This document shows positions 10,261-38,352 of a stretch of 43,033 nucleotides of DNA, in pieces (within the stretch, counting starts at the first letter, position 1; every line of letters starts with the position of its first letter). The DNA comes from Phoronis australis (Eukaryota > Animalia > Phoronida). The notes below the pieces were generated by a model that did not search any database, was not told the origin of the DNA, and worked only from the letters and a program-made list of their open reading frames with translations. Position numbers and translations under genes: made by a program. The DNA lies in the NCBI GenBank assembly GCA_002633005.1, contig NMRA01000782.1:1-43033 (forward strand), read 5' to 3'.

Positions 10261-11733
10261 TACTCAAGGCTGGAAAGGTGGGAAAGGTTTGTTAAATTGA
10301 TACTGCATTCTGAAGTTAATTTCATCGGATCATTACAGTCAGTATACAGCAACTTCATTTAATGTTTTCGCGATGGAATTTTCATTCGAGTGTGTGCAGC
10401 AGTTCCTAACACTCGCGTTCATAATATAAACTCAGTTGATTTTATAATCTTTAAGGAGCTTTGAGTTGTGAAGTTGACAAATTCTTTACACTGGGAGACA
10501 TGTACATAAGCAAAATGGAACCAACAACCTGTTCTGAAGAAAGTTGTAATCGATACTGTGTTCCAGTTTCAAGTGCACGACAAAAGTGAAACTATTTCTC
10601 CTCCCCGGTGGTATATTCAGGTAAAAGTCAAAGCCTTGGAATTTTGACGGAATTTCCAAGAGATTTTGCCATGTCATAAACTGGCATACGATGCTTACAG
10701 TAAGCAGCAACTTTCAATGCATTGTTCTCTAAGTTCAGTGTATGTATTACAATTAAAAGAAAATTGACTCATTTTCAGTTATGTTGTGAAAAACGGGTCC
10801 ACACAAGCCGCCTGGTCAATATCCAAGTGTCTCTAGACTTCATTGAACAGGAAACTTGCCATAGTCATAATCTCTGCACAGGGAATACTTAGACTTAGAT
10901 AACTTTACAATCTTAAATTCCAAGAATTAAACGAGATACGTTGTCGTAAGCCTTCCAAGCTTTACCAACCAATTTTTAGGAATGAATTTGACAACATGAG
11001 TCTATGTACAGGCTCAAAGGTTTGACGTTCAAAATCAAGAGTTGGGAATTTGTATACACAAAATATCGTGTTTAGGCTTGTGCGATAACTGATTAGTAAT
11101 GAACGGTCTTATGCTAGCCGTACACGACGCCTCAACTGACGCGCGCCCGGTTAATGAGCTGCGGTGACTTCACGGCACACCCAACACGCACACGGTGTTC
11201 CTCAATCCGGAACATCTCGGGTATTTACGTAGACCATTTATTCAATCGGAGGACAATGTTGTCTGCATATGTTCGGGCTTTAGTTACAAGAAAAGTTACA
11301 TGATTTTCAAATTGGCCAAAAACATGTAAGGCAAATAACTGAAACATACAAAACATCTTGTCGTCAACCAACAGCATAAACGTTGTCATGTGAATTTCAG
11401 TTGTTTAATGGGCTTAACCTTATTTCATTTCCAATATTTGTGTCAGCATGCACTTAGCAACTTAGAACAAATAAAGTCGTTTTATATGACGTCTTATTTT
11501 TTGATGTTTTCTAGACGATTCCGCAAAATAAGCGGCAAAGAATGGCTTTTGACTTAGCCGCCTGTTATTAGTTTGCTTCCAAATGTTCGTCTTATTTATC
11601 TCAGTTGTCTATACCACACTGCCTCCCCATATCAATCTTTTTAACGGATGTCTTACTTTCAGACTCTGGCACTTTACACGTGATGAAACAATTGCCAGAA
11701 AATTTCAAATGTAGGATAATCAAAAATCTAACA

Positions 11734-11905
11734 ATGGCTGAACTCACCCCCTCGCTGGATGACTACAGAGCAGAAGGCCCAGTTGAAACTCAAGAACCTA
11801 AATGGCAACGCGCGGATACCACTGGTGAAGAACTGACACATGCGCCAACGAACAACAGAAAGGAGGAAGAGACGAATGAGGATGATACATGTAACACATC
11901 GCAAG
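11734..11905 (+). CDS. RHIM/TRADD-N-like/NTase-like/TPR gene, first coding exon (acidic low-complexity N-terminus)
   Basis: Acceptor TTTCAG ending 11662, ACAATGG Kozak-like start at 11734, MAELTPSLDDYRAEGP...TCNTSQ, phase-1 donor G|GTAGAG. An upstream in-frame ATG at 11684 (MKQLP) is an alternative start. Confidence 0.65.
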
Positions 11906-12215
11906 GTAGAGATTGCAAAAATGTTCCGTTTGCTGTGTCACAAACAAAACTGCTGCTCTTGCTTGCTAGCCATTCTACCCTGTGAAGAACTTAGTACAAA
12001 ACATAACTGTAGAACTGATTTAGTTTTTGAATGCTAGCCTACTAGCTCTCTTGAAGTTAATTCAATAGAAATGACCTGCATACACGTACATGTATACATA
12101 GACTAATGGGGGATGATACGACGATCAGCAGGCCTACGAGTGTTATAAAAAACTATGCGCTGAACGCAAATACACGCTTCGTTAGATTTATGTAAAACAC
12201 AAAGGTTTGCAACAA

Positions 12216-12350
12216 ATTCTGCCAACTGTAAACTACAGAGTATTCTGCCAATTATAAACTACAGAGTATTCTGCCAATTGTTAACAACAGAGTGTTTTGC
12301 CAATTGTAAACTACAGAGTATTCTGACAATTGTAAACTAGAGAGTATTCT
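12216..12350. repeat. Intronic minisatellite, 26-bp unit x about 5
   Basis: Consensus ATTCTGCCAATTGTAAACTACAGAGT repeated head to tail with few substitutions and no spacers. Confidence 0.95.
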
Positions 12351-12750
12351 CAAGCTGAAAAAATAATCAATCCAGTCTTGGATACCATCGTTGCCTGCAA
12401 GCAATGTTACCGTGGCACCCATGTGGCATTTTATAGTTCACAGTACTAAGGCCCTCGGGCTGACGTGTCCCTCCCTCCCTCTCTTTATCATATTCTCCCA
12501 CCTCCTTCCGTCCCTCACCCCAAATGTTCTCTTCCTTCCTCCTCATTCCTTGCTATCTAATTTCGACAGGGAGGTTAGTTAAATGCTAACTGTGGCACGT
12601 TATTGATAATCAAGACGTCTGGTTTTAGATGCAGTATTTTGCGGACTTACCGCGTCACATTATTACACTGATAAATATTGTCGACTTGCAATTAGATTTT
12701 CTTTGCATTTTCGAAAACCCATTATGTTTCAATCCGACCAGTTATTTCAG

Positions 12751-12924
12751 CGCAATTCCTAGAGTCTACAGACAGAGCGTGTGAACAAGGGCTTCCCGAT
12801 GAGAGCAGTGGGCCGAATCCAGAAACAAACAAAATGCATCGTCTCAGTATTTTTGAGAACGTGGTCAATCTCCAGATAGGAAACAACAATACTATTAATG
12901 AGTGTCAGAGGGAACAGGGATATA
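12751..12924 (+). CDS. Coding exon 2 with RHIM-like motif 1
   Basis: Acceptor TTTCAG| (in-frame alternative TTCCTAG| starting 12763), donor A|GTGAGT, phase 1-1. Peptide ...ESTDRACEQGLPDESSGPNPETNKMHRLSIFENVVNLQIGNNNTINECQREQGY. Confidence 0.8.
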
Positions 12925-13115
12925 GTGAGTACATGTGTGCACAATTTACAGGAGAGAAAAGATATTACCAAGCCATTTAATTAATTAACGTGTGTTAATA
13001 ATCTCACGTCCTCATAAAATACACGTATTTTTAGATTCGTAGGTATTAGCATTGGGTAAAGTTTCAGCTCTTGGTATAAACAAGGCTCGCACAGTTCTAA
13101 TTTAACCAGTTATGT

Positions 13116-14588
13116 CACGTGTCCCGAAAAGTGACAATTAATTGACCAAATTCGTTAAAATTTTTCTAAATGTATCTTTGGTTTGTCATCAATAAGCTTA
13201 CAAAGTACATGTATCTCCGTGAAATATAAGAAATTATGGAAGAACTGTTAAATTCAAACCAGCGGGACGAAGAATGCAATATCACTGTGACTTTCATCCT
13301 GTTCATGCTCTACTCTCACTAAAAAAACTTCCTGTCTGGATCTCAAGCCTACTGTTTTTTATTGTCAGATCAGTTCTGTTCAATACTCTGGTTTGTTAGG
13401 ATGCCTTTGAGTGAAAGTGATAAATTTACAATTAAAACCTTGTCTCAAGAAGAAAGGGTGGAACGGATAAAGGATCGTAAGGGAGTTCCCAGGAAAAGGG
13501 TGGAGTCATGTGACTGTATTGCTAAAATACGCAACACAGGGTCTGTTGGCTTAATACTGGCAGTGGAAGACCCAAGACTGCATGTTCGAAAGAAAACTAG
13601 GATCGTGTCGAGGAACTAATTCAATCCCTGGAGGACAACCCGTGGAATTGCAAATCTTTGAGACAAGTCGCAAGGGATTTCCAATTGAGCAAGTCTTCTG
13701 TGCAAGGAATGGGGAAAACACTGGAGTTAAAACCCTTCAAAAGTATATGTGTATCCTGGAGAAATCTAAACTTTAGAAGGAACAGAAAAATTCGATGCTG
13801 CTAGTTGCATGACCTCTATTCAGCGACCGATGTGAAAGGAATCATTTTCACTGATGAAAAGGACTTCACGCTAGAAATCACTAAAACCACCAAAACTGTC
13901 GTATTTATGGGAAACAAAAACGAGACATTCAGCCTTGTCGACTCTATCATGAAACTTCCAGATTTCTCAAAAAGTAATGGTTTCCGTATCTTGGGAAGGA
14001 AAAACAAATATTCATTTTATTGACGCTGATACAGCCAAAATTAACAAACAACGTTACATGCAGTTATTGGACGAAAATCTTCCTGATAGCAAGCAACTTT
14101 ATCCTGGAAACAATTACGAGTCTCAGCAAGATGGGTCTCCGTCACACACGAGAAAGATAGCCCAGGCTCATCTGGACGAAGCCACACCAAAATTCATCAA
14201 AAAGGATAAGTGGACTCAGCTTAGTCCTGACTGCAATCCAATTGACTGAAGGAGAAAGTTTACCGGGGAATGAGAGGAAAACTGACTGAGCAGGAGATGG
14301 ACGAAATACGGAAAAGCATTCCTAGTTGGTAAAAAAGCTCCGTTTAGTCGTGACGGAGGCCACAATGACCGTGGACTGAAATAAGCGAGCTTCCCTTTGA
14401 TATTTTATTTTTTGGCCTGATGTTTTTAATTTGTCAGTACTCGCATAATTGGACACAGATCTCCTTGATGGACATCATTTGTTGATAATGTCATTAGGTT
14501 CATCTTTAAGAAATTTGAAAAAAAAACGATTCATCCGTTGCTGTGAAATTTGTTGTTAAAAACTGGCTCACTTTTTGGGACGCCTAAT
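13116..14588 (+). mobile_element. Decayed Tc1/mariner-superfamily transposon, maT (DD37D) type
   Basis: Imperfect TIRs GTGTCCCGAAAAGTGA / TCACTTTTTGGGACGC. Frameshifted transposase with IIFTDEKDF, QQDGSPSH and SPDCNPID; 37 residues counted between the second and third catalytic D. Confidence 0.9.
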
Positions 14589-16193
14589 ATGGGTTGCGAT
14601 TTCGACGCCCAGGCCTCACCCTCCTTACTTTAACAAAATGAGTGCCCCCGGGAGTAGACGTTGGTGGGTTGATCACACGCTACATCACTGACGAACGAAA
14701 GGGTTCAGCAGTCGTATTAGAAATCTCAAAACATGTTAAATTAATAACCCAACGAACTTCCCAAACACGTTGTTGCGCCATTCAGACGGACTGCAATATG
14801 TGTTTTTCCATCAAGCCTCGCAACGTGTGAATTCACTTTCGATTTTTCAACTGATGCCCTCTGAAGAGCCGGTAACCTCGTCTAAACACACTCTGCTTAA
14901 AATTTTAGCCTCCGCGCATTATCGACCCCTCCAACTGCTTAAACGTCAACTTTGGCATATCTTTCAACGACTTTGACTACTTTTTCACCATTGTTTACAT
15001 TAACAGACTAAGCAGATGCATGTGTAGCCTCGTTTTGAAATCCGGTAGTCGGAAGTATGCATGCTTTTGATAATCTCCTGATAGATTAGCCAAAATAAAA
15101 ACGAGTTTTTGGATATACGTTCAATACAATAATCAATGCTTCCTCGAAAACGATCGGTGAAGTCATCTCACAAAGCGAACAGATATTTTAGTTTCTTATT
15201 CTTCCTCAAATGAACCATGTTGGGTCTGCTCCGCTCAGTGGGTCGTTACCTCCAACCAACTTCAATTGTTGGAGAGGGTGCTTTGAGAACCGTTGCACCC
15301 TTTACGGGTGTGGGTTTTGGAAAATTCACATTTCCACCAAGTCATATAGATACTAGAGTAATCAGGCGATGGGCATTTATTCGGGTGAATAAATAAATGC
15401 CAAAAAACATCAATTGCAACGTGTGGAACTTACTGTAAAGCAACTTTCTCAATGTTACATGCGGAGCCGCCTAACTCCTTCCGCGGGGGATTAACGACTG
15501 TCTCAAACGAGTGTCCCATGTCACTTAAGCGCCAAGCCATGCGCTTTCTGACCAACTGTTTTGCCTCACCAATATAGTCATGCAACCCTCAGCGTGATGA
15601 TGTCCGTCGAGTCGTGTATCACATTTCGTGCCATTGTGACGAATTTGGAAATTCGTATACGTTGTCTTTGTTGCAAGTTTAACGCTTTACAACCCAAAAA
15701 TAACCAACAGGGTTCCCAGCCAAACGCCTGGATGGCAGGTTTAAAGTAGATTAGACACTCAACTGGGGTCTAGCAACATAAGGCTTTTGATTTTTGTCTG
15801 ACAAATTTATTTGTTTAATAAGTTGCTCTACCACCCAAATAATCCAGCATTTTCCAACATGTTGAAGACCGTGGAAATCAGTTTTTATATAATTATGCTT
15901 CCAACTTTACAAGTTGAACAAATTTTATCGTCCTGCTCATTCAAGGCTCATATCAAGAAAAATAGCGCGGTCTAGTTACATGTAATTATATGATTGAGAT
16001 TTGAGGTGAGTTATACATATAAAATTCAATTCCGTGCGCAACTCTCAATCATACACTCAATGCGTATGAACCACAAAATCTAATGTACATGTTAAAACAA
16101 AAAATATTTCTCATTTCTCATATATGCACGGTACACACCAAAAAGACAAAGACCCCGAATTTGCCGTCGTGATTGTCAAATTCATTGTTTCAG

Positions 16194-16268
16194 GGGTCTC
16201 TCTCACGACTCAGAAACGATGGGAAATTACAGGAAAGTTAATAAAGTGGCGAATACTGACGGCAGACG
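16194..16268 (+). CDS. Possible additional 75-nt symmetric exon
   Basis: TTGTTTCAG| acceptor and G|GTATTT donor, length divisible by 3, open in phase 1 (VSLTTQKRWEITGKLIKWRILTAD). Weak donor and no motif support; not counted in the 1444-aa model. Confidence 0.3.
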
Positions 16269-16829
16269 GTATTTTGTCTAATTACTCTGGCCTTGTACTG
16301 CAAGAATAGCAAAACCAAGCGTTTAAAAAAATCAGACGTATAAACATGTTTTTCGTATGTACAATTCGTTGATTGTCCGTCTGCTTTTTGTGCGATTTTT
16401 TGTGGTTCAGTTGCTTGATTCTTGTTCGTACATACTATGTTGTGGTTCGATTGTTCGAGCGTGTGATTCTGGCATGCGCATGCGTGTCTACCCAGCAAAA
16501 CCGAAACTTGAATTAGGTCTTGTTTTATTCTCACGTAATTTCCCTTGTCATGATACCTTTATATTTCCGGTATCGGCAAGAAAATAGAGACCACCAGCGA
16601 CCACAGAAAATCCTTAAAGCTTTATTGTGGTTGGCCAAACGTAAAACTGCAAATTTTGAAATGGCACATGTATATATTGAGAGATGGTAACGGAAACGGG
16701 ACGCTAATGACGCTGAAGAATACTGTTCGATCGATTTCATGGGCGCAGCATGCCTAATTCGATTTTTGTATTCTAGTCTGATAAACAGGGAGACGTATAG
16801 GTTTAATTATGCATACAATTATATTTTAG

Positions 16830-17108
16830 ATGAACTAAAAAACGAGGATTGTAGCGGACAATCTTTTAAAGGTACTTCAAGCTCGTCTAGTTGTGCAGCT
16901 TTTTGTGACGTCGCTTATGTGGGTAACGCAACGAACGTCCAGCTAGGAAACGATAACGTTATGAATATTGCTGGTCCAACAAACAAAGAAGACATAGAAA
17001 ACGTTAGGGCCGAACATGAACAAAAGGAATGTTCAATCCCGGAGAAACCGTCTGGCCATGTACAGGGTGTGTCACCAGACGGAAGCACAGAAAGCACAAT
17101 CAATGAAG
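16830..17108 (+). CDS. Coding exon 3 with RHIM-like motif 2
   Basis: TATTTTAG| acceptor, G|GTAATG donor, 279 nt, phase 1-1; contains DVAYVGNATNVQLGNDNVMNI. Confidence 0.85.
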
Positions 17109-17999
17109 GTAATGTTACATATTGTAATGGTTCATGAACTGTATTGTAAAGAGTTATGGCAATGACATTTCACAGTCTCATTAACTAAACATAGTAGCCG
17201 TAAATATGTTACTTTTGCTTCCTCTCACGACCGACATTTTCAAGACGTACACATTTCTTTAAATGACCAATTTTTCATCGTATAAAATTGTAACAGCAGA
17301 TGTACTGATTTCGATGCCCCGGCTGGCGAGTAAGTTCGGGGACGTTATTTTTCAGTACAAGTATGATTATAGATAATACTAAATATTTACTTAAACATAA
17401 TTAGCAAACAGCATCGTCATTGGATAATAAGCATATGCTAGTCATTAATTATCTTTTTAATTGATCTTTTATGGTTTCAATCACCAAAACTGATGTGGAA
17501 ATAACGCATATAGTTGCTCCGCTTAAATTATGGTGGCGGAACATAAAAACCTAGTTGCAACACCAATAAAGTCCATGGCCGAACCAAAAAAACCCATGAC
17601 TCAATGGCAGGACCAAAAATCTTAGCTCTTTGGCTGCAAGCATACCAGTGCGAGCCCGCCAATTTTCTGACTGATGCAGTAGGGCACCCAGTGTTTTCCG
17701 CCATTTTGTCCTGTGTAGCACTCTTCAATATGGCGTCATATTGACAACGCGAGCTGCATGTATCTGAGTGGCGCCCGCCCGGTCTATGTATTAAGATGTC
17801 TATGATTTGAACTAAGTTATCAACGTATCTTTGAGAACTGACCCCAAGTGGATCGCAAGATCCATCCACCGAGTAATAGTACGGGATTGATGTGTAATAT
17901 ATCACAGAATCTTGAGTGAAGTAAGCAGCGTGTTCAATATCAACGCTAATAATAACAAATTCGTAAGTCTGCCTAAATGCAACATCTTTTTTGTTTCAG

Positions 18000-18080
18000 G
18001 TGCCAGTGTTGGTTGTACTGCTGAGCCCGAACCAACAAACCATGCCACATACAATAATTTGCTAGAACGAACACGTGAAG
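18000..18080 (+). CDS. Coding exon 4 (linker)
   Basis: Strong polypyrimidine tract plus TTTCAG|, G|GTAATG donor, 81 nt, phase 1-1, GASVGCTAEPEPTNHATYNNLLERTRE. Confidence 0.8.
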
Positions 18081-18731
18081 GTAATGTATCAATGTACACA
18101 GTTGAAATTTACGGTGTAAACGCGTTGTAGCTTGAAAAGAATGGCTAATCACTACATGTATGGACAAGGACTTGAGGTAGATATTAGGAAATGCCTACAG
18201 GTAGGAGACCTTTGCGTTAAAAGAACTTTTCAGGAATAATAGCAGCATTGTTTCAAAGCAAATCGAATATCCAAAATTCTTTTCTGTTTTCATAGATAAA
18301 AAATTATTACGAAAATACAAAAATCACTAACTGTTAATATTTTTGCAAATTTTTGTCCAGAACAACAATAACTACTCTTTTCAAAAATGGCTCAAACGTG
18401 ACCATTAACAACAATGTGACATTATTCGAAAGGCATTTACATTTTGTCCTCAGTGGTTCACAAAAGGTGAACTATTACTGGTTGACAAATGACACTCGAC
18501 AGACTTCCGTGACAAGGAATAAAGATTTGCCGTATGCTCCCAGCAATTTAGTTACTCTTCATGTACCAGTGGAAATAGTAATTCTACTGGTACATTGTCT
18601 TCGATTTACGTCGAGTGAACGCGTCTATCTGTGGATAAATTAGTTACCTAAGTGGTTGGAAGTTTAGTCTCTGTCTCTGAGAGCCTCAAGTCTGTTACAT
18701 GTGACGTATTAGAGACACAATTCACGAGAAA

Positions 18732-18890
18732 CCTGGCGCGCGTTCAGTAGACGCTAGGACCTACGCTAGGACCTAGCTAAAACCTAGTCACAGTCACGTG
18801 TTCTCATTTAAAATACACGGCAATATCTCACGTAATCTCTCGAAGTCTTGCTTTTTAGCGAGGTCCTAGCGTTACTGAACGGGAGGCTGG
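18732..18890. mobile_element. Short MITE, family B copy 2
   Basis: TIR CGTTCAGTAGACGCTAGGACCT / AGGTCCTAGCGTTACTGAACG; related to 6311-6463. Confidence 0.8.
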
Positions 18891-19269
18891 ATTTCTTCGA
18901 ATGAGTTCCTGTGGTGGTACCTACATATTACTTCCATGGAGGTCCACTCAGCTGATTTGTTTACTTGAACTGAATGGAACGTGCATCACAGCAAGTTGTT
19001 GAATTGATACTTGTATTCTAGTCTTTTCTGCAGTAAAAATCCACGAGTGTGCGTCTCTGAATATACGTGCAATACATGTACATGTATGAGCCTGATAGAC
19101 CTATAGACCGACGTTGAACACAAATCAAGGAAAATATATGCATGTTTGTATTTCGTGGTCGTTGTCATGGTGAAAACGTGTACATGAGGGTATGTCTAAG
19201 GAAATAATGGAAATATGTTAACTTGGAAACAAAAAACAACTGTGAAAGGTTCGGTTCTCTGGTAACTCG

Positions 19270-19668
19270 TACCGGGATTTTCCGTACAGTGTAGATAAGC
19301 CCTGCCGATGAAACACCCATCGTCGCGTAGTCGGAAAATTATGCCGAATAAACGTCTATGGTTTTGCAACTTCTGGTGCAAAGTGTCCAGATAGTGAGGC
19401 ATTATTGGGAAAATTTCTTTTTCAAAGCCCAGTAAGAGTCAACTTTTTGTCACACATTCAATTTTGTAAACCATATATTATTTACAAAAACGAACAGTGT
19501 TTATTAACAAAAATTTTAAAAACAGTTTTAAGTAAACTACGACTTTCCGTTTACGCGCCCTCCTTTTCAAAATAGAGGCCCGGGCGTATATTTGGTGTCA
19601 CTAAAACGACTGGAATTTTTCATTTTACAAAAACACGCCCATCCGCTTATCCACAGAAAATCCCGGTA
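19270..19668. mobile_element. MITE, TA-flanked (Tc1/mariner/pogo type)
   Basis: TACCGGGATTTTC...GATAAGC and GCTTATC...GAAAATCCCGGTA inverted termini. Confidence 0.8.
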
Positions 19669-19718
19669 GTGTGGACGGACAGTTATCTCCCTTTAAAACT
19701 GATGTTTTACTTTTGCAG

Positions 19719-19769
19719 CCGCTAATCATTTGGGGAACAGAATGTTGGATTTGATGCAGTACCTTGATA
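19719..19769 (+). CDS. Coding exon 5 (51-nt mini-exon)
   Basis: TTTTACTTTTGCAG| acceptor, A|GTGAGT donor, phase 1-1, AANHLGNRMLDLMQYLD. Confidence 0.7.
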
Positions 19770-20709
19770 GTGAGTAAAATGTTTTGTTTGGATAGAAGGT
19801 GGCTCAGTCATGACAAAATTGTTCAATTTGCGTGTGGGGTTATCGTGCACTCGCTAGTGGCCTGGAAAAGTGTCTTTAACGAAGTTTTTATTATTTTTCA
19901 TTTATTTCGATACATAATGGACATCGTTTTGTTTAGTAGCATATATACATTTTTTGATATTCATATACCCGTAGACTGGCGTTCAACTGAACTTTTCACC
20001 AAAATTATGAGATTTGATCGGCAGACTATGCAGGGAGGATCACTAGATTACTGAACTCAAAGCCTCCTTAGTGCTGTTGTCACGAGAAATTAAAGAAATG
20101 AACAACTTTTTTTTAATGAGAACCTCTAATATACACTACCTCTGTAGAGTTAAGGAGAGCTCATTTTGTATTTGTTCAAACACGATACTTGGATTTATGA
20201 ATCTTTAAAAAGCAATTTTTGTTATTTTTGTAAATGGCCACTGATTGCCACTACACCAGACTTGTCATCTTTTGTTATCATACCAGAACTGATTGATCAT
20301 GCTACGTTTAAAATTTAATGAAAACTACCTTTATGCAATGAAACTACAAAAAAATGAAGTTTATCAGAGGGTTGGCCTAACGACGCGACCCACTGTACTT
20401 TCCTCGGGGAATCCGAGCAGTTGTGACCTACTTCTCATTTGGCGAAACTTAGCAGACTGCGGACTAAAAATATCGGAGAATCTTCTCTGATTTTGTTCGA
20501 ACTATCCTGAAATTTATGGCGTCGTGCAGATAATTCGACTTGAAGGTACATACCCAGCTTTACATGAACATGTCGCATCAGTGGCCTTGCCAGTTTTCAA
20601 GTGAACTCCGTGTGGGGTTCTTCGGATTATCGCTGGCCGGCTCCGAAGTACTTTTCCTCAAAAACTTACTTTTTCATCGTCGCCTATGCAAATTCCCAAA
20701 TCATGAGCG

Positions 20710-20805
20710 TACGATTCTCAGCTGAAAAACTGTTGTCTTTGTCGAAGCGTTTTTGTAACATACGATTCTCAGCTGAAAAGCTGTTTTCTTTGTCGAAGCA
20801 ATTTT
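20710..20805. repeat. Tandem duplication, 51-bp period x 2
   Basis: TACGATTCTCAGCTGAAAA.CTGTT.TCTTTGTCGAAGC at 20710 and 20761. Confidence 0.9.
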
Positions 20806-21439
20806 GGAAAGTGCAAAAAACACTCATCGACTCCACCTGGAAAGCCGTTTAGGGAGTGTATTTGCCTCTGACATCTTGTTTGTTTGTCGGGTGTCACATG
20901 GCTTCTTGCAAGGGGGCGGAACTTGCGATTGGTAAATTATAATTTGAGTGCAAAGGAGCACGTTTTGCGGTTCACGTCAAAAATTGACCTACCGGTATAC
21001 GTTTTGACTCTCCCTAGCGCAATGATTTTATTGCACAGGCGTCTTGAGAACATCTCTGACTGACACTGGTGACCCGTTGCATGAATCAGTCCCAATAGGG
21101 CTACTCCCTAAATTTTTGGCACGTATTTGAAGACTTTTTTTGCTTTGTTTTCAAGAAAATGATATGGGACAATCAGGTACCGTAGTAGCGTTCTGCAGAC
21201 TTGATTTCTCGAGAGAAGTGCAAGATCTTGCAAGGCGCGAGTGAAAAGCAAGTACTACTCCAGTATACTAGCCTGTCACGGCTAAATGACAACCACTAAA
21301 GCGATATTAGTTGGCGAGGTTCAAATATTTATGGGATAGAATTCATGAATTATGGGATTGAATTTGATGTTTCCGTTCCATAAGAAGTTTATGGTCGCAA
21401 GCGCTATAACCATGCCCAATGCTTACAATGACACTCAAA

Positions 21440-22134
21440 AAGGGGGTCATTCTGATGTGTCCCAAGTTCTACGTGTCCCGGGATATACCTGCCTCGTTTT
21501 ATGCATATCGGGGTTCTATGTGTCCTGGATTTTATGTGATCAATTTTCTGTGCATCGGAAGAGTTCTATACTGCGCATGTCCCGGGTTCTGTGTGTCCCG
21601 GTTTGGTAGTGGTGATTGACCGCTGTAGAGAATGTTCTAACTGCATGTACACATGTATTTGATTGCCATCATACGGGCGCGACATTCAGTGGGTTTTCCG
21701 GATGCTTCTTTCAAATACACGCATTATGCACACAATTTCTCCAGGCGGACGATGGTTAATTTCATACCGGGCTTCATGTGTCCCAGGCCATTGTTCGACC
21801 AGCCAAGAAAATCAACATAAGATTGCCGTTTGAGACCAAGTCAAAGGAGTACTGTCAAGATCCAGCTTGCATTCGAAAATCCCGGAGGGCATTGCTTGCT
21901 CTGACAACGACCAGGATCAGAATTGTTACGTGGACCTAAAATGACGATTGTTGCTACTGTACCTTTCCCACTCTTTTGCTTAGCGCCTGGACTATAAAGA
22001 CCGGAAAACAAAGAACCGGGACACATAGAACCCGAAGTTCACAACGCGGGACACATAGAGCACCGGAGACATAGAATCCGGGACACATTGAACCCGGAAC
22101 ACAAAGTACCCGGGACGCAATGCTACGCACCCCT
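21440..22134. mobile_element. Foldback-like non-autonomous element with arms of about 17-bp tandem repeats in inverted orientation
   Basis: The left arm has GTCCCGGGTTCT(A/G)TGT-type units (21455-21605). The right arm has the reverse complement CCGGGACACATAGAAC x about 6 (22010-22120). GGGG...CCCC termini. Confidence 0.7.
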
Positions 22135-23390: not shown

Positions 23391-23531
23391 CAGTGACGGA
23401 TTCAGAGGGGGGGCTAAGGGGCCCATGCCTCTCCTAAAATTCTCCCAGATTCCAATTCGGGGGTGCGAATGTCTGACGGGCAAAATTCTAGCTAATAACC
23501 CTCCTAACTCAGAATCCTGGATCTGCCCCTG
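23391..23531. mobile_element. Short MITE, family A copy 2 (CAG..CTG termini)
   Basis: CAGTGACGGATTCAG / CTGGATCTGCCCCTG imperfect TIR; internal similarity to 5200-5345. Confidence 0.75.
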
Positions 23532-26290: not shown

Positions 26291-26366
26291 CAAATGAACG
26301 TATGACGCAGTTACAAGAATGAAATTTATGTACTTTATGTAATGCGCAATGTTTATGACACGCTAG

Positions 26367-26702
26367 GAAACTGCTGTCCTGCAAAGAGACATTCTGACGA
26401 AGGAAGAATGCAGACTGTGGAAAGGACGATAGTAGAGCAGCAAAATGCAGAGAACTCTCCTCTTCGAAATTCTATTATTAATCTGTCGCATGGACATAGC
26501 CGCGTTATTATTGTTCAACTTGCGTGCATCGAAATAACCTTTGAATGCACGAGTTTGGAAGATGTCAAAGAACTTAAAAGGCAACTTCTGAGTGGTAGTT
26601 TAGATGGACAACTTAAAAGAGCTTTCATGACCGAAGAAGTAATGAAGTTGTCCGAGGGTGTCGATTTCGATATCAGCATCGAAGTTGTTGATAATCTTAC
26701 AA
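26367..26702 (+). CDS. Coding exon 6, TRADD-N-like domain
   Basis: CTAG| acceptor (weak pyrimidine tract), A|GTAAGT donor, 336 nt, phase 1-1. RVIIVQLACIEITFECTSLEDVKELKRQLLSGSLDGQLKRAFMTEEVMKLSEGVDFDISIEV matches the TRADD-N-like pattern (hxhxCxSLExLxxL...SGxLxxxL...hTEE) that I recall from invertebrate proteins. Confidence 0.75.
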
Positions 26703-27265
26703 GTAAGTACAATGACTTCATGGTCCTTGTGTAGACGGCAAACATGTGATGCAAATAGCTGGTTAATTCAAATATTTTGATAACCATTACGGGGCTTCAT
26801 TTCCAACAGTTTTAGAGATTGTACACGCTCTCAAACTCATATTTTTATAATTGGCTGCCATGTACTCATAAAACGAAATTGTCTCTAACGTAGCTCTAGG
26901 ATAAAATTCTCTACATACTAACTAACCATAACTTAACTGATAATGAGATTAGCCTACTTTCTAAGCGACTTAACTTTTGTCCTACCAAAACCTGAATTAC
27001 TCATTGTTATTTCTACTTTTGCGAGACGTCTTAGGTGTGCAGAACATTTTGACAGTCCCACCAAAGATGAAAATGAGAAATCCACCTTAGAAATTACCCC
27101 TTTCACGAAAAAAAGCAATTGGAATCCACCCAAAAGTCAAAACCATGCCCTCTTACGTTACACAGAACAAATTACTAATGATGTCATGAATTACAAAAAG
27201 CATAACTACAAAAATATAATATTACTAAATTCGAAAATGATGCCCTCACAATTCTCGTTAAAAAC

Positions 27266-27524
27266 TAGATAAACATTCGTCATTTCTTGTCAACCTTTAT
27301 TGAAAGAATGATGGAGACCTAGAAGTACAAGTAAAGAGAATGCTTACTGTATAGCTCAAGGGTAATGACAATGTACTATAAACGGGATATAAAGTGAATA
27401 CACATGGAAAAGGTGATAATCCCTACCTCTATGTAATATCAACGTGTAGTCACTAAGACAATGGTGGGAAGCTAGCTACAGAGACACCTAGTGGTTATAG
27501 TATGAACTATTATATAATTCTCTA
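27266..27524 (-). repeat. 3' LTR
   Basis: Direct repeat of 30015-30273; TAGA...TCTA ends; adjoins the PPT (CCTCCCCCT on +). Confidence 0.95.
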
Positions 27525-27569
27525 CCTCCCCCTAAGTTATGGAGGGACGCAATAACTAAGAGTAATGTA

Positions 27570-29571
27570 TTATGAAGTAACAAAATCGACCAGCCAGGCC
27601 GGTTTGCGACGTTCCCGAGTAGACCGTCGAGGGGCCGGGGGTTCTGCAGTAGGGCAGGGCTCGGAAGAGCTCAGGATAGGCGGAGGATCTGTAGTGGTCA
27701 CGTTAGGTTCTGGGTCGTGTGAATGATCGTCCGGAAGCTGTGCGTCGACGCTCCCGCGCGACAGTGAGTTATCAGGTGTGAGGGGTGGACCAGCGTTGCG
27801 AGTGACCAGCATGTCAGGGAGTGCAGGCCTGGCTTGGACGAGTGGCCGGGCAGGAATGTACTTCCGCAGAAACCGTCTGTTGCGGAGAGTGACACGTCCA
27901 GAGCCATGAACTCGCACGACGTATTGGTCGAACTGTCTCACCTCTATCACTAGGCCCGTCTTGTCCCAGTGGAGTGGCTCCGGTCCGGTTTGATTTTGGA
28001 TGCGGACGAAATCACCGACAATGAGGGGACGAAGACGTTTGGTGTGCTCAGAGAGCTTCTCCGAGACCTTCATATGTCGGTGGCGCAAAGCGGCCTCGCA
28101 CAGATCCAGGGTGTCAGTCCAGGTGTCGTGGTGCTTGTAGCGACCGGGCAATATCGGAATAAAATCTTTTATAGGACGACCGAAGACACATAGAGCTGGT
28201 GACAATTTCGTGTCTTTATCTGGGGTGTTACGGTACTGTAACATCGCCCGCTGAAAGGCATCCGTGTCGAGTTCGCCGTTTGGTCCAGTGTTGTCCGTAA
28301 TGAGTCGCTTGATTGTTTTCACGCCAATCTCGGCTCGACAGTTGCTGTGGGGGAAAGCGACGGAGGAAACACGATGGTGGACACCCCAGGACGAGAGTAG
28401 GTTCGTGGTAGCAGAGGACGTGAACTCTGGGCCGCCATCACTGGATAACTCGTCGGGTATGCCGAAAGTGACGAAACAACGGCGTAAACTGTCCACGAGA
28501 CCTTTGGACCCCGAGTGAGCGCGCTCAACAATAGGCCAGTTTGAGTAACGATCGACGATAACGAGGTAATGGACACCTTTATATGTGAAGAAGTCAGCAC
28601 ATACACACTGAAACGGGTAGACGGGTAAAGTGGGTGGTGTGGGAGGGGCATGTGGCTGGGATGGTGACATGCGATTGCAATGGTGACAACCCCGACGTCT
28701 CTCAGCAATGTCGTTAGTTATCCCTGGCCAGAAGACGGAAGCGTCAGCCCGAGCAGTCATAGAGGATATACCTTGGTGGGCAGAGTGGAGCGAATCCATG
28801 ATAGATGGCCGTAAGGCAGGAGGAATGATGACGCGATCTTTATAGGTGATGACGCCATCTATGGTGGACAGGTAGTCGCGAAACTGGTGGTAAGGCCGTA
28901 ACGCCTCGGGTAAGGCTTCTCGTTGGTCGGGCATGCCAGATTCGATGATGCCTAAGAGGGTATGTAGGTCCTCGTCACTGCTGGTAGCCTCACGGACACG
29001 GTCCCATGTTACACATTTAAGGGAGGTAAGGGCGCAAGTAGCTGTAATGTGGACACCGCGGTCAATATCAGTATCGATGGAAGCGACGTCGTCAGGGAGG
29101 GGAAGCTGCCCCGTTCTGCCGGTGGGGTGTCTGGAGAGACAATCTGCCGCCTTGTGACGCACGCCGGGGACGTGAACTATGGTGAAGCGGTATCGTAAGG
29201 TCTTCTCTTTGAGGTTGCGTAGGCGGGTGTTTGGGATATCCTCTAAAGCTCTGTCGGATAAGACTTTGACAAGTGGTTTGTGGTCGACGGCGACCGTTAG
29301 GTCGGTGCATCCCAACACAAAGAATCGAGCCTTGTCCAAGGAGTCAGCAACAGCCAGGGCCTCGCCTTCGATTGGGGCATATCGGGTTTCGGCAGAATGG
29401 GTGAACCTGCTGCCGACGAGTGTCACCTTCCAACCGGATGGACAACAGAATGGCCTCGTCTTGGAGCAATGGCAGTGTTTCTGCAGTAACCAGAAGCCGA
29501 TTCCTGTCTTGGACCAATCGGTTGCCAGGCAAGTTGGTTTAGTCTTGTCAAAGATGCGCACACCTTCCTCG
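27570..29571 (-). CDS. pol: Gypsy pol (RNase H and integrase), 5' part in the assembly gap
   Basis: [21 protein letters not shown] and VDHKPL (RNase H); H-x3-H...CHHC zinc finger; CADFF, SDGGP and RAE with D-35-E spacing; uninterrupted 663-aa frame. Confidence 0.95.
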
Positions 29572-29720
29572 NNNNNNNNNNNNNNNNNNNNNNNNNNNNN
29601 NNNNNNNNNNNNNNNNNNNNNNNNNNNNNNNNNNNNNNNNNNNNNNNNNNNNNNNNNNNNNNNNNNNNNNNNNNNNNNNNNNNNNNNNNNNNNNNNNNNN
29701 NNNNNNNNNNNNNNNNNNNN

Positions 29721-29962
29721 TTGGTCGCCGTGACGTAATCGGACCAGCGGGAAAGGAAATATTGCCAGTTCTCACTCGTCCCAGCCGAGGCGATGTGAGG
29801 CCGTTTGACCTTTTCAGCAGGCACAGCATGAGGGTGGGGGCTACCAGGGACTGGTGACGTGTGACTTGTGGCGTGAGTTGTCAGTAGAGCGGCCACAATA
29901 GCGGGGTCGACGTCAGGCGTCATGTAGGGGCATCCCTCAATAGGGCACTGAATGATCGGCAT
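29721..29962 (-). CDS. gag: Gypsy gag N-terminus
   Basis: ATG about 40 nt after the PBS; MPIIQCPIEGCPY...LLTTHATSH...AEKVKRP...WQYFLSRWSDY; runs into the N gap. Confidence 0.85.
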
Positions 29963-30001
29963 TGCGACGCTTGAGAAGTCGGTAGAAGTAGGTCACTGAA
30001 T

Positions 30002-30014
30002 TAGGTCTCCATCA
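30002..30014 (-). promoter_or_regulatory. Primer-binding site complementary to the element's own LTR
   Basis: Element-sense TGATGGAGACCTA directly follows the 5' LTR and is the exact reverse complement of element-sense TAGGTCTCCATCA at 30058-30070 inside the LTR. Confidence 0.8.
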
Positions 30015-30273
30015 TAGATAAACATTCGTCATTTCTTGTCAACCTTTATTGAAAGAATGATGGAGACCTAGAAGTACAAGTAAAGAGAATGCTTACTGTA
30101 TAGCTCAAGGGTAATGACAATGTACTATAAACGGGATATAAAGTGAATACACATGGAAAAGGTGATAATCCCTACCTCTATGTAATATCAACGTGTAGTC
30201 ACTAAGACAATGGTGGGAAGCTAGCTACAGAGACACCTAGTGGTTATAGTATGAACTATTATATAATTCTCTA
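30015..30273 (-). repeat. 5' LTR
   Basis: Identical to 27266-27524; AATAAA on the - strand at about 30045-30050. Confidence 0.95.
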
Positions 30274-30570
30274 AAAACAAAGAAATCGTAATCAAACCAG
30301 CTGATACAGGATCAGCTGTTGTTAGAATGGACAAGCACTGACGAGGCTCTCCGGTAATTAAGGACACTACATACTACAAACTTTTAGATAATAACCCCAA
30401 CACAAAGCATATCAATATTATAACTAAAACTATTTTGAATGCTTTCCACTGTGGTCATATTGACAAAGACACCAAAAACTATGACCTCATTCCTAATAAT
30501 GCTCAACCTAGTCGGTTTTATCGCCTTCCTAAAATCCACAGAGAAGGTAATCCTTGACGCCCGATTATAG

Positions 30571-32065: not shown

Positions 32066-32200
32066 AAATACAAAACGTACCTCGATTGGCGTACGTGAAG
32101 TAATATCCCACTAGACATTATTCCGTGTTTCGGTCGATACGCGTCATAATGTCTCGTAGGATATCACTTCATGTTCGCCACTCTCGGTACGTTTTGTGTA
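32066..32200. mobile_element. Palindromic MITE, family C copy 2
   Basis: ACAAAACGTACC...GGTACGTTTTGT; shares GTCGATACGCG..ATAATGTCTCGT..GATAT.A.TTCATGTTCGCCAC with 30811-30919. Confidence 0.85.
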
Positions 32201-32246
32201 AATATCCGAAAAATTCCGTTGATCCATTATTGTTGTTTTATTTACC

Positions 32247-32327
32247 TATATATATATATATATACATATACATATACACATATATATGTATACATATACA
32301 TATACACACACATATATATATATATAT

Positions 32328-32415
<88 letters not shown>

Positions 32416-32418
32416 CAC
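32247..32418. repeat. Compound (TA)n/(CA)n microsatellite
   Basis: Directly visible dinucleotide runs. Confidence 0.98.
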
Positions 32419-32830
32419 ATTTCGTCAAACTATAGTATCCTTAACAGGATCTGGATTGCCCCTTTTAATTTCAGATTTATTTTCTACGTTATTCTACAAA
32501 TGATGTATGCTTATTGCATTTTGCTTTGTATATTTGCTCAAAATAAGTCCGTCTCGGGAAGAATAAACCGTGACCTTTTTGTCTAACGGTGTAGTGAAGT
32601 AAACTTTCACTTGTTGTGTCTCTCTTATCTGGGAAGCATAAATTCTTACAGCATGTGGGCGAGACGAGCTAAGTGCTTAGCCGATTGCTTTCGGTAATCA
32701 CTAATTGCATTAACTGTCAACAGCAAATTTTTTTTCTCCCTGACACAATCTAACCATGTGTATTACATTTACTCTATTCACTACGAACGTAAGTTACAGG
32801 TCAGCCAGTATTTCGCTCGCTGTGTTTTAG

Positions 32831-32953
32831 TTAACCTTGACGAAATTGTGACCAAAGCAAAAGAAATACAACAAGGAATTGCGAAGTTGCATGAGAATCG
32901 AGGGAAGTTGAAGGACCTATTGCCTAAACAAGGGAAAATTGACTCATACACGG
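32831..32953 (+). CDS. Coding exon 7 (coiled-coil-like)
   Basis: GTTTTAG| acceptor, G|GTAAGT donor, 123 nt, phase 1-1, NLDEIVTKAKEIQQGIAKLHENRGKLKDLLPKQGKIDSYT. Confidence 0.85.
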
Positions 32954-33710: not shown

Positions 33711-33815
33711 CTGATCAACTTAAGCAAGTTTCGGAGACAACGGAGAAATTGGAGAGTGATTACAAGAAACTTACAGAAATTATACAAAAGGAAGAAATAA
33801 AACAGAGACCCGGAA
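33711..33815 (+). CDS. Coding exon 8 (coiled-coil-like)
   Basis: GTTTTTTTAG| acceptor, A|GTATGT donor, 105 nt, phase 1-1, ADQLKQVSETTEKLESDYKKLTEIIQKEEIKQRPG. Confidence 0.85.
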
Positions 33816-34527: not shown

Positions 34528-34632
34528 GAAAATCTTCAGTTGATTACAGTGCCGAGAGTAACTCTAGGAAAGAAAATATTCAGTTAATAGCACGAGTGAA
34601 TCTTATTGTAAAGAACGACTTTGTGGAAGCAG
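34528..34632 (+). CDS. Coding exon 9
   Basis: TTTATGTTTGCAG| acceptor, G|GTTAGT donor, 105 nt, phase 1-1, KSSVDYSAESNSRKENIQLIARVNLIVKNDFVEA. Confidence 0.8.
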
Positions 34633-35443
34633 GTTAGTATACAATTCTTTTAGAAATAGAAATTTTTCCTTTTCAGACTGAAAAGGTACTTGCTGTGTGA
34701 CCCGTTTTGACAGCCACACACGCCTTCTCAGCACATCTTTTTTGACATATCTTTTTATCCAAAACAGTTAACTTTGTAGATGGTGCTTTCAGTCACCACT
34801 TCATTACCTGTATTTATGACGATCGGTAGCCCAGTGATACTATAATAATGAAGTACAGTGGTTGCTTCTGTCTATCGTAATAAAAGTTCACACCGTGAAA
34901 TTCAAAATATCGCGTAAGAAGTGAAAAACATCCTTTGAGGGGTCACTTTTACAAGGATTATGAGAATATCAGACAAATGTGACTCAAGTCCTTATTTTTT
35001 CATATCATTGGATAATCGTAAATTGCTCTTTCGGGAATCCTTCATGGCTGATATTAAGGATATCTAGCTGTTTTCTTGATTTGATACTAAACCATGTTTT
35101 GTTAATTTCACTCAAAACTGTTTTTGTCTCTTACATCCCTGGAAAGGTGAAAGCATTGTTCAGGTTAAAATTGTACTCAGTGTATAACTGTTACATGTGT
35201 ATGGATTCATTGATTTGAGATTCACGGCTTTCCCCCTCAGTCGTCTATTAATTTGTCTTGTCTAAACCTTCAGTTATGGTTGCCGATAGAGCAGACTTTG
35301 AACTTCTCAAATCAATCCTTAAACTCAGTTTTAGCAAAACTGACTCCGGTGTTGAGGTTATGATAAGACGGTATTCCAGAACCGGGTCAACGTCAATAAA
35401 AGCAAGTGCTATCAACAGCAAAGAAATCAAGTTTGAATTTCAG

Positions 35444-38352
35444 ATCGACAACTTGAAAGGTTGGAGGCGAGGGAAGCAGAGTTGGCGGCATCACTCAGAG
35501 ATCGTTCTGCGACTGGAGGATCGTCATCAGTATGTGAAATACTTCAGCAACTGGGAGATGTTTACAAAGAACGAGGTTTGCTGACTAAGTCAACTCAACA
35601 CTTCGCAACAGCTTCTGCATTATATAACGCGGCTTTCTTCCGTGCAAAAGAAGCTGATTCTATTCAGAATCTGGAAATGCTATTGAGACAAAATGAAACC
35701 GCGTTCTGCAAAATTCTGTCTATATCAAATGGTACGCTCCCAGTTGACTTCAGGTCAACCATTACTGACAAGTTAGAGACACTCAGACACGGCGTAACCA
35801 GAGAGAGTAAACGGTTACTCGACAACTTTGCGGAAAATCTTAAATTTGATGCACCAAACGATGAAAGAATTGAGGTAGAAAAAACGTTTGTGATCGAGAG
35901 CAGAAAGCTGTCTCAACGTGTAAGCAATGAAATACCATCTTTGTGTAAGGAATTCTTTTCAAAAAGTTGCGAAATACTGGGTCCACCACCTCACGATTAT
36001 GCTGTCATTGCCTTTGGGTCCTTGACAAGGGGCGATGTTACACCGTGTTCAGGTAGGCCTATTAAACTGGGAATTCTTTGTGAAAACGGTTGCAGTGATG
36101 TCGAGTATTTTAAAAACATGATGAATCTTGTCCACATGTTTGGCCATAATATGGGCGAAACTGATGTTAGTAATTTGAAAATCAAATCAGTTTCACCAGG
36201 TGGCGTTACAACTTCCGGATTCTCGCTTGACAGTTCGTCTCCTTATTCTGACGTGATAGTGCAGGAAAGAAATTTATTAGTCGCGACCCCCGCCCAAATG
36301 GCAGAGATACTTGGCTATGGCTCATCGTCATCAAGTGGTCAGGAGTTCACTGATGTCCTTCAAATCCATGGTAGCGCTGGTGGCGATTCACTATTTAAGG
36401 AATTTGAGTTCATTAAATCTAAAAAATCAGAAAGCGGAAACTGGAATCTCCTGTCGGAAATTCAAAATTGCAAAGAAGGTATGTTTGCCATAAGCCTTTT
36501 TAAACCACTCTTTCGTCTGGAAAACAACAACGTTTGGGAAATTCTTGATGAAATGAGATCCAAGGCAATATTATCAGAGGAAGCCATGCACAATTTACAA
36601 GTAGCGTTATCGGTAAGCGCGCTCTTCAGACTGCTGGGACAGAACTGTGACGGCAAACAGAATGAATGGTACTCTGTAAGCCAGCTCTTATCATTTCTTG
36701 CAAGCAGTAAATCCGACTACGGAGAAGTGCCAAAATACAGCAAATACAATCCTGTCATTATCAGATACTGTTGTACAGCTTTGCCCTTTTTTGCTTTTTT
36801 GTGCAAACAGGGTCCTGATTTTAAGCAGGACACTGAAATCAAAAAACAGAAGTTCTGCGATGAGTTTCTATTAAAAATGGGTGGGGTACTCATATTGTCA
36901 CAGGTGAGTGGAGGCAAAAGTGAGCACATTATTGAAGCGTATCTTAAATCCTTAAGTGTCGCAGATGAGGCTAGTAGTGGTATTGTGGAGGAAAAAGCAT
37001 TGGAATGGTTGAACGAAATTTCAACTCTGGCTGACCGTTTGATAGAAAGTAGAGGTACCACTGCACAGGACACGGCAGGCATTGGGCTCTCAAGCACTAA
37101 TGATGATGCGGGGTGTCATATATTTGCACCATGTTTGGGCATTATAGGTCAAATGTACAGTGAAATGGGTAAGCACGAATTGGCCTTGAAGTACTATCAA
37201 CAATCACTGACTTTCTGGAAAAGACTTTATGGTGAACGCAATAGGCAAGAAGTTGTTGCCTGTCTCAGTAGCATCGGATGTGCACTCGTGCAATTGGGCA
37301 ATTACAACCTGGCCCTAAAGTTTCTTCAGGATTGTTTAGATATGCAGAGGAGGATCAGTGGGATCAGAGATGACAGCCGTATTGCTTCATGTTTAAATAA
37401 CTTGGGGAACGCGTTCACAGGCAAGGGCGATTATGAATCCGCTGAGAGATGTTACACGGACTCGTTGAGTATGATGAAACGACTTCATGGAGACAAAAAT
37501 CGAGCTGATATGGCGTCATGCTTGTGCAACATGGGTAACTTGTGTAAAAAGTTGGGCAAGCATGAGATAGCCATGCATTACCTTCAGAACTCGTTGAGTT
37601 TAATGCGAAGGACGTACGGTGAAGATCATCCAAAAACTGCATTGACATTGGATAGTATTGGAAGTGTACACAATGCTAAGGGCGAATACCAAGTTGCATT
37701 GGGATTTTTTGAAAATTCTTTTGCAATGAAGAAGAGAGTACTTGGAGATGTTGAAGATTTCGGCATTGCAGCATCTATAAATGACATAGGTGGTATGTAC
37801 TATAAAATGGGAAAATACAATGATGCTTTAACATATCTTAAACAATCGATGAGTATTTTAGAGAATATACTTAAAAAAAAGGATCACCCTGACATCGCGC
37901 ATAGTTTGAGTAACATAGGAATTGTGTATAGCACAATGAATCAAAACCAACAAGCTTTGCGATGTTTTCAAAAATCATTGGATATGATGAGGAAGGTCTA
38001 TCATGATGCAGATCATCCCGATATTGCGCCATGTTTGAATAATATTGGAAATGTATACAGTAAAATGGAGAATTACCAAAGCGCCCTGGAGTATTATAGG
38101 TATGCACTGAAGATCTGGCAGAAGGTCTATGGAAATGATTATCATCCTGACATAGTCAGGTGCCTGCACAACATGTCGATTATGTGTTCACAACTCAACG
38201 ATCATGTGCAAGCCCAGCGGTATAATTACGACTCGCTCCAGGTTAGGACATTACTTGAGTCTCGAGGACATAAGGTAGATGTTTCTTCAGGGCTGGCGAA
38301 GGGTAATTTGAATGTAGGTTCTTTCTCAAGTATTTTCCAACTTTCATGTTAA
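35444..38352 (+). CDS. Large terminal exon: degenerate DUF294/GlnD-like nucleotidyltransferase region plus nine TPR repeats
   Basis: TTTCAG| phase-1 acceptor just after an in-frame TGA, so the TTG 'start' in the ORF track is probably not real. LGDVYKE...ASALYNAA, LGPPPHDYAVIAFGSLTRGDVTPCS and LSEEAMHNLQVALSVSALFRL motifs; 42-43 aa repeats of the AxxLNNIGxxY...HPDI type from about 37126. Confidence 0.93.

Follow-up and report, generated by a model that had tools for sequence, protein, structure and literature searches.

Amyloid signalling through the RHIM is well studied only for the vertebrate proteins RIPK1, RIPK3, ZBP1 and TRIF and for the IMD pathway of the fly; to our knowledge, RHIM proteins elsewhere have become known mainly through sequence surveys. 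The tetrad at the core of the motif is also used with a wider set of residues, which admits L and C. In one paper it is given as V/I-Q-V/I-G (PMC12119088), and RIPK1-like kinases with a RHIM are placed there in some spiralians, in Lingula and in lancelets. Also described are unstructured flanks, the order conserved Asn, variable residue, apolar residue on the C-terminal side of the core, and copies that may stand in tandem; in invertebrate proteins RHIMs occupy the position of death-fold adaptors, sometimes in tandem, and BF82280 of amphioxus combines a RHIM with a NACHT and repeats (Kajava et al. 2014, PMC4262963). A second adaptor domain, TRADD-N, is expanded in marine invertebrates, where it tends to sit between the variable and the constant parts of proteins, and its fusions include TTC28-like TPRs and an NTase (nucleotidyltransferase), oligoadenylate synthase (Kaur et al. 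2021, PMC8195603). Here, we describe a gene on the + strand of contig NMRA01000782.1 of Phoronis australis (assembly GCA_002633005.1), whose 43,033 nt are called the window below. With a probability of roughly 0.55, we read it as a transcribed multi-exon animal gene for a scaffold that likely serves innate-immune or cell-death signalling, with a predicted length of about 1450-1490 residues: two RHIM-like motifs at the N-terminus, a module in exon 6, charged helical segments, a degenerate NTase-like domain and a C-terminal TPR array.

Four amphioxus DUF294-TPR proteins (Branchiostoma floridae C3XXI7_BRAFL, here P0011, and P0004, P0007, P0086) and the protein P0097 are colinear with the predicted protein over a helical or TPR-like cap, an NTase plus helical domain, and a TPR array of the kinesin-light-chain/nephrocystin-3 type. 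These relatives, which are themselves unstudied, differ in keeping the catalytic motif S-D-L-E and in having N-termini that consist of repeats of the helical unit; they contain no RHIM-like pattern and no match to residues 1-480 of the window protein. The likeness to proteins of the BF82280 type lies in an N-terminal RHIM in adaptor position, in the tandem RHIMs with unstructured linkers, in large size and in C-terminal repeats (PMC4262963); the centre of BF82280 is a NACHT ATPase, whereas a predicted GlnE/DrrA-type fold without catalytic residues stands here. As in marine-invertebrate TRADD-N proteins, a candidate module is located between a variable adaptor and a constant part; there, the domain is usually paired with a death-fold domain (PMC8195603). 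A text search of that paper found the word RHIM 0 times and no GlnE, AMPylase or adenylyl term. Like our protein, ZBP1, RIPK1, RIPK3 and TRIF have a core tetrad, (I/V)-Q-(I/V/L)-G in type, with Asn-x-apolar behind it, and ZBP1 additionally has tandem RHIMs beside a sensor domain (PMC4262963). Unlike these vertebrate RHIM proteins, the window protein has no kinase, Z-alpha, TIR or death domain and stays below the Pfam RHIM threshold. Finally, an N-terminal amyloid motif combined with a C-terminal repeat sensor is also found in fungal NWD2/HET-S and in bacterial NOD-like receptors (NLRs) (PMC4262963; bioRxiv 10.1101/2020.01.06.895854); these receptors differ in being STAND NTPases whose partner with the matching motif is encoded by a neighbouring gene.

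A first-pass annotation, made from the letters of this DNA, had likened the arrangement to that of an NLR. The resemblance holds for the layout and for the layout only, as a P-loop family (NACHT/NB-ARC) is absent from the Pfam matches of every exon. Its further statement that no characterised protein of such architecture is known is by now partly outdated, considering the amphioxus DUF294-TPR proteins, the RHIM-NACHT-repeat proteins and the fusions of TRADD-N to TPRs (PMC4262963, PMC8195603); it stands insofar as we found no second example of the full combination. The open-access literature searched describes neither an animal DUF294-TPR protein nor a protein with RHIM, TRADD-N and TPR. Our verdict is that the parts and the design logic are known and that the combination of domains is new, within the known expansions of immune-type genes in invertebrates.

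The annotation had joined ten exons with GT-AG borders into 4335 nt, corresponding to 1444 residues and a stop. These numbers are exact if 11663 is understood as the start of an exon and not as a start codon: summed from 11663, the exon lengths give 4406 nt; counting only from the ATG at 11734 leaves 4335 nt, enough for 1444 residues and one terminal stop. An AG lies upstream of all ten exon starts, that at 11663 included, and a GT downstream of the first nine ends; the acceptors are preceded by polypyrimidine tracts and the donors are GTAAGT-like, all on the + strand. Because exons 2-9 are each divisible by 3, all nine introns are in phase 1, which is the pattern expected of shuffled domain exons. 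The remark that the list of open reading frames (ORFs) clearly shows only the last exon was borne out as well: among stop-to-stop + strand ORFs of at least 150 residues, 35437..38352 (971 residues) is the lone standout and corresponds to this exon. The window is AT-rich animal-type DNA with a GC content of about 0.35-0.43 except in one retroelement, and a single polyA-signal-like hexamer, ATTAAA at 39234, was found downstream of the stop codon. For the comparison with transcripts, RNA data carrying the same species label were mapped over positions 7500-27000; X1 is a run of contigs presumed to be RNA, X2 to X4 are raw-read RNA runs. The gene comprises the following features:

9922 to 10017, + strand: upstream exon with undefined 5' end; an X1 contig spans 9922-10017, and an in-frame ATG with good context lies at 9960
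11663 to 11905, + strand: exon 1, with ATGs at 11683 and 11734; both flanking junctions in reads
12751 to 12924, + strand: exon 2, with RHIM-like motif 1; junction 11905/12751 in reads
16830 to 17108, + strand: exon 3, with RHIM-like motif 2; junction 17108/18000 in reads, 12924/16830 not listed
18000 to 18080, + strand: exon 4, linker; both junctions in reads
19719 to 19769, + strand: exon 5, short helical linker; both junctions in reads
26367 to 26702, + strand: exon 6, 111-residue module, candidate TRADD-N-like; acceptor junction in reads
32831 to 32953, + strand: exon 7, charged helical segment; AG/GT borders, phase 1-1, open frame
33711 to 33815, + strand: exon 8, charged helical segment; splice sites, open frame
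34528 to 34632, + strand: exon 9, linker or helical segment; splice sites, open frame
35444 to 35745, + strand: first part of exon 10, with the last of the helical stretch and a TPR-like helical cap
35746 to 36855, + strand: predicted NTase plus helical domain of GlnE/DrrA/DUF294 type, with a degenerate catalytic motif at about 36013-36090
37139 to 38310, + strand: TPR array of kinesin-light-chain/nephrocystin-3 type, matched by Pfam
38350 to 38352, + strand: stop codon TAA of the spliced frame

Spliced reads or a contig contain the GT..AG joints 11905/12751, 17108/18000, 18080/19719 and 19769/26367. Thus, of the nine junctions which the annotation had proposed for an RNA check, four of the five located within the mapped region were seen; the fifth, 12924/16830, is not listed there. 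An additional GT..AG joint, 10017/11663 (4 reads in X2, 1 read in X3), was missing from the annotated model; it follows that 11663 is a true acceptor and that at least one exon lies upstream. Once this 5' exon is included, the frame extends upstream as far as a stop at 9897 and contains the in-frame ATGs 9960 and 11683, so that the protein may start 43 residues earlier than annotated. The strand of the reads agrees with RNA from the + strand. The gene is covered in two of the three raw-read runs, X2 and X3, and hardly in X4; as the three belong to one study, its near absence from X4 within the mapped region means that expression differs between samples. The RNA thus supports one transcribed and spliced gene that reaches at minimum from the new 5' exon to exon 6. 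The X1 contigs differ from the window in exons 1, 3 and 6 (11696-11865, 16932-17041, 26520-26523) at an identity of about 95-97%; the 15 differences listed for them comprise 11 amino acid replacements and 4 silent changes. In the X2 reads, a third state occurs at position 26520. The variation in X1 and X2 suggests either an allele that has diverged or a close paralogue, plus fast evolution of the protein.

Downstream of exon 6, the model might join two genes, with exons 1-6 belonging to one, the NTase-TPR exon to another, and exons 7-9 being chance open segments between an AG and a GT; we regard such a chimera as very unlikely. The junctions from exon 6 to exon 10 lie outside the mapped region 7500-27000, but the frame of exon 6 closes 32 nt past its strong donor at 26702 (stop-to-stop ORF 26306..26734), so that splicing must carry the transcript further. 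The small exons 7-9 (123, 105 and 105 nt) have no Pfam family match, and because every intron is in phase 1, the openness of the joined frame tests such small exons only weakly; yet all three are multiples of three, open, and encode charged helical protein. The amphioxus homologues begin directly with the helical or TPR-like unit that opens exon 10, which would suit a separate gene; exon 10, however, starts at a good phase-1 acceptor and without an ATG-led start of its own in the model. Moreover, the window contains no other recognisable gene: none of 20 further ORFs has a Pfam family above threshold. Scans of the window with Rfam and for tRNAs gave 0 matches and 0 tRNAs.

Two RHIMs had been proposed at the N-terminus of the single gene that we prefer. 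Motif 1 in exon 2 (about 12867-12896) has the core LQIG followed by N-N-N-T-I, and motif 2 in exon 3 (about 16934-16963) has the core VQLG followed by N-D-N-V-M. Compared with the tetrad (I/V)-Q-(I/V/L/C)-G, VQLG agrees and LQIG departs at position one; behind both cores an Asn-x-apolar triplet is present (N-T-I and N-V-M), and the copies are 54 residues apart. The motif regions consist to 43-47% of polar or small residues, and the N-terminus, polar as a whole with an acidic exon 1, is by composition probably disordered. The extended form common to both copies, N-h-Q-h-G-N-x-N-x-h-N, occurs exactly twice among all 86,062 residues translated in six frames. A broader RHIM pattern, composed of the published tetrad and the C-terminal Asn-x-apolar (PMC4262963, PMC12119088), matches only at residues 98 and 152 and in none of the 120 TPR proteins that were fetched as described below. 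A comparison of exon 3 with the PDB sequences gave 0 matches.

Alternatively, the protein could be an ordinary TPR scaffold with an Asn/Gln-rich disordered tail, in which RHIM look-alikes arose by chance and which has no amyloid or immune role. This we consider unlikely, although Pfam's RHIM profile remains below threshold for one motif and misses the other, and although a polar-rich N-terminus favours short patterns of this kind: in 200,000 composition-preserving shuffles of residues 1-235, one match appeared in 0.064% of the trials and two matches in 0/200,000, and the extended form is confined to the two copies. In addition, the tetrad survives as IQLG in the divergent contigs of X1, where V152 is replaced by I while flanking residues are altered. 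What stands of the proposal are two non-random, RHIM-like motifs; their resemblance to RHIMs is far from chance, and this is good, not formal, support.

The C-terminal TPR array is certain: TPR_10 (E = 4.1e-70, 8 stretches) and TPR_12 (E = 6e-70, 5 stretches) match it at E-values of about 1e-70, in agreement with the annotation, and TPR_NPHP3 reaches 5.3e-33, a match below its own cutoff of 100.

For the 545 residues ahead of this array no Pfam family scores above threshold, and a word-indexed homologue search with the non-TPR part of exon 10 found none among 7992 candidates. The search with the TPR part returned the 120 fetched proteins, generic TPR proteins with at most 38% identity. When the spliced residues 1-1040 were compared with these by phmmer, five proteins matched residues 485-930 with 35-67 bits, namely the four Branchiostoma proteins P0004, P0007, P0011 and P0086 and the metagenomic P0097; in BLASTP, P0011 (5e-31) and P0086 (5e-24) show 25-26% identity over about 450-500 residues. 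The five homologues score 32.1, 21.9, 21.7, 21.0 and 19.3 bits with PF03445 (DUF294; cutoff 21, reached by 4 of 5) and have weak matches to DUF294_C and SidM_N as well. Consistent with this, the protein-language-model features of the Atlas place the region among eukaryotic DUF294+TPR clusters (0.94). A scan of metagenome loci with the central domain gave 35 pattern matches and 0 confirmed ones, an NCBIfam search contained nothing relevant, and the results of a PDB profile search were swamped by TPR chains.

A structural model was generated with AlphaFold2 (AF2) from an alignment of six sequences. Foldseek ranked DrrA and two GlnE domains at positions 1, 2 and 6 (probabilities 1.0, 0.93 and 0.90). 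In VIA-align, DrrA (6yx5) came first (Z 15.1, root-mean-square deviation (rmsd) 4.5, 289 residues aligned) and GlnE third and sixth (1v4a and 3k7d; GlnE-N with Z 12.6 and 282 aligned, GlnE-C with Z 11.6 and 267 aligned). The span shared with DrrA and GlnE comprises about residues 79-469 of the model, whose first 100 residues align with TPR units. DrrA/SidM and GlnE are thus the best structural matches of the central domain, at 9-12% identity and for a model of low confidence. Together, these results give moderate support to an NTase fold with a helical substrate-binding domain. The NTase-like fold of the annotation was the right call, and homology and the structural comparison specify it as a predicted adenylyltransferase fold of the GlnE/DrrA/DUF294 type (PF03445, PF10335); nothing shows, however, that it acts as a nucleotide-driven switch in the manner of NACHT, whose place it had been given.

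The catalytic motif reads S-D-L-E-F-A-I-L in 5/5 homologues versus S-G-R-P-I-K-L-G-I-L in the window protein. The latter retains the preceding G-S, has other residues in place of both acids and carries an insertion of two residues. In Pol-beta-like NTase folds, these carboxylates bind the catalytic metal. The bacterial enzymes DrrA and GlnE are active; their acidic catalytic residues have no counterpart in the window protein. Since both conserved catalytic acids are replaced, the central domain is probably a pseudo-enzyme. One might still suppose an active AMPylase or nucleotidyltransferase that employs other residues and modifies a target bound by the TPRs, as DrrA and GlnE do; fold and homology are of the appropriate type, the G-S and a downstream Asp (F-S-L-D-S region) are kept, and the amphioxus relatives, which retain the full motif, may be active. 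The loss of both S-D-x-E acids, conserved in 5/5 homologues, together with the two-residue insertion makes this improbable in our view, and we proceed with a pseudo-enzyme.

The gene looks like a constant DUF294-TPR core, common to amphioxus and to a metagenomic, possibly bacterial, protein, which gained variable adaptor modules via phase-1 exons. Just such a mode of evolution is reported for the TRADD-N and RHIM proteins of invertebrates (PMC8195603, PMC4262963). Residues 1-25 of P0097 form a hydrophobic, signal-peptide-like stretch, and DUF294_C is present in P0099, a TPR protein of Parachlamydia. Bacterial relatives of the core, possibly secreted ones, may thus exist.

The segment from exon 7 to the start of exon 10 is charged, and helical both by eye and by a crude heptad score, so that the coiled coil which had been annotated here is plausible, if unproven. 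The start of exon 10 was modelled with values of 60-90 in the predicted local distance difference test (pLDDT); VIA-align superimposes it on a TPR of LGN (4jhr_B; Z 13.4, rmsd 1.7, 86 residues aligned), and the same helical unit recurs repeatedly at the N-termini of the amphioxus homologues.

Exon 6 encodes a self-contained module and is a candidate for a TRADD-N domain (PF09034/PF20694). Among its 30 matches in the Atlas, 15 are clusters with PF20694 (TRADD-like_N), at values up to 0.93; the shared features number 209-213 and the recognition value is 2708, an outcome that the tool itself rates as a lead only. In the TRADD-N fold as described in PMC8195603, four antiparallel strands and kinked helices form an RRM-like two-layer alpha+beta sandwich, and the turn between beta2 and beta3 has a tiny residue plus Ser, sometimes Cys. 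A single-sequence AF2 model of exon 6 contains a hairpin (45-51, 54-60) followed by three helices, and in this low-confidence model the hairpin turn is A-C for the window, against G-C for the X1 variant. Such a turn would fit the TRADD-N feature, which is suggestive only.

Several further observations concern the introns. In intron 2 (12925-16829, mainly 13359-14660), sense RNA reaches a depth of about 2-6 in X2 and X3, equal to that of the exons, and short non-canonical skips occur (e.g. 14320->14379). This RNA could stem from unspliced precursor, from a transcribed repeat or from an unrecognised exon; two ORFs of 98 residues in the intron have no Pfam family. Intron 4 contains, at 18735-18890, a MITE-like (miniature inverted-repeat transposable element) sequence of about 155 bp with terminal inverted repeats. 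All four runs cover it very deeply with RNA (reads in the hundreds, and a contig depth of thousands), and loose ends occur at either side; it is therefore a high-copy repeat that is also part of many other transcripts. A long-terminal-repeat (LTR) retroelement lies on the minus strand inside intron 6 (27266-30273). Its pol-type ORF of 733 residues, with reverse transcriptase RNase H, integrase zinc-binding and integrase core domains, stands between two direct repeats of 259 nt that are 100% identical (27266-27524 and 30015-30273). A stretch of 149 N, an assembly gap at 29572-29720, breaks the element, and the local GC content peaks here at 0.50. Two + strand ORFs of 160 and 117 residues in the same intron (32104-32586) were rejected as spurious, being made by a TA/CA microsatellite (32219-32426).

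A number of results weigh against the reading of the gene as an immune or cell-death scaffold. With respect to the motifs, the Pfam RHIM profile PF12721 assigns 14.5 bits (E = 0.027) to motif 2, where the gathering threshold is 20 bits, and does not match motif 1 at E-values up to 10; the first core residue of motif 1 is L instead of I or V, a conservative departure, and the pattern was widened to allow L at this position after the motifs were known. With respect to exon 6, neither the exon nor its stop-to-stop ORF matches a Pfam family at E-values up to 10, phmmer gave 0 matches in 1.84 billion representative proteins, a word-indexed search against longer proteins gave none among 109 candidates, the PDB sequences contributed one unrelated chain (E = 1.4), and the mean pLDDT of the AF2 model is 42.2. 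The TRADD-N-like domain of the annotation thus failed to gain support from profiles, from sequence searches or from a confident structure, and what speaks for it is the language-model lead. In the central domain, the window protein's own match to PF03445 amounts to 12.9 bits (E = 0.1, residues 165-228 of exon 10) and lies below the cutoff of 21; the AF2 model is poor (mean pLDDT 52.5), and the best Foldseek match has an E-value of 1.3e-2, none reaching 0.001. The heptad score behind the coiled coil is home-made and flags TPR helices, too. As to the gene model, junction 12924/16830 is absent from the table of joints for 7500-27000; a joint enters the table with 3 or more reads in a run, the remaining joints are backed by 1-11 reads, and with support so thin throughout this is a weak negative. 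The linkage of exon 6 to the TPR exon is drawn from splice sites and the open frame, the RNA mapping having covered 7500-27000. Finally, all five homologues are devoid of RHIM and TRADD-N modules, no second example of the full architecture was found, and the presumed role in immunity or cell death is deduced from sequence.

We infer an immune-receptor function, for which a mechanism can be outlined. The TPR array would bind a ligand or a partner. In the resting state, the dead adenylyltransferase-like domain and the flanking helical segments might hold the protein off, or else they might drive its oligomerisation; binding would then cause release or oligomerisation through the pseudo-enzyme and the helical region. 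The resulting clustering would unite the tandem RHIM-like motifs at the N-terminus and could seed an amyloid of the RHIM type with RHIM-bearing partners, and the module of exon 6, should it be a TRADD-N domain, would bring in another adaptor. In a bolder version, which we put forward tentatively and regard as doubtful, the protein would represent a class of animal cytosolic immune receptors without a STAND ATPase, in which a TPR sensor acts on a dead GlnE/DrrA-type switch, either nucleotide-binding or oligomerising, and the latter on tandem RHIMs and TRADD-N, such that the receptor itself nucleates the RHIM amyloid; active DUF294-TPR relatives in amphioxus and bacteria would mark the enzymatic ancestor.

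Several parts of the protein are amenable to assays, namely the two short motifs for amyloid formation, the pseudo-enzyme domain for nucleotide binding and the TPR array for ligands. If the gene does not signal, it would be another shuffled product of the large domain expansions of invertebrates. If it does, receptors that combine a repeat sensor with an amyloid adaptor could be built around a central module other than a NACHT ATPase, and an unstudied animal family of DUF294-TPR proteins would be placed in immunity or cell death.

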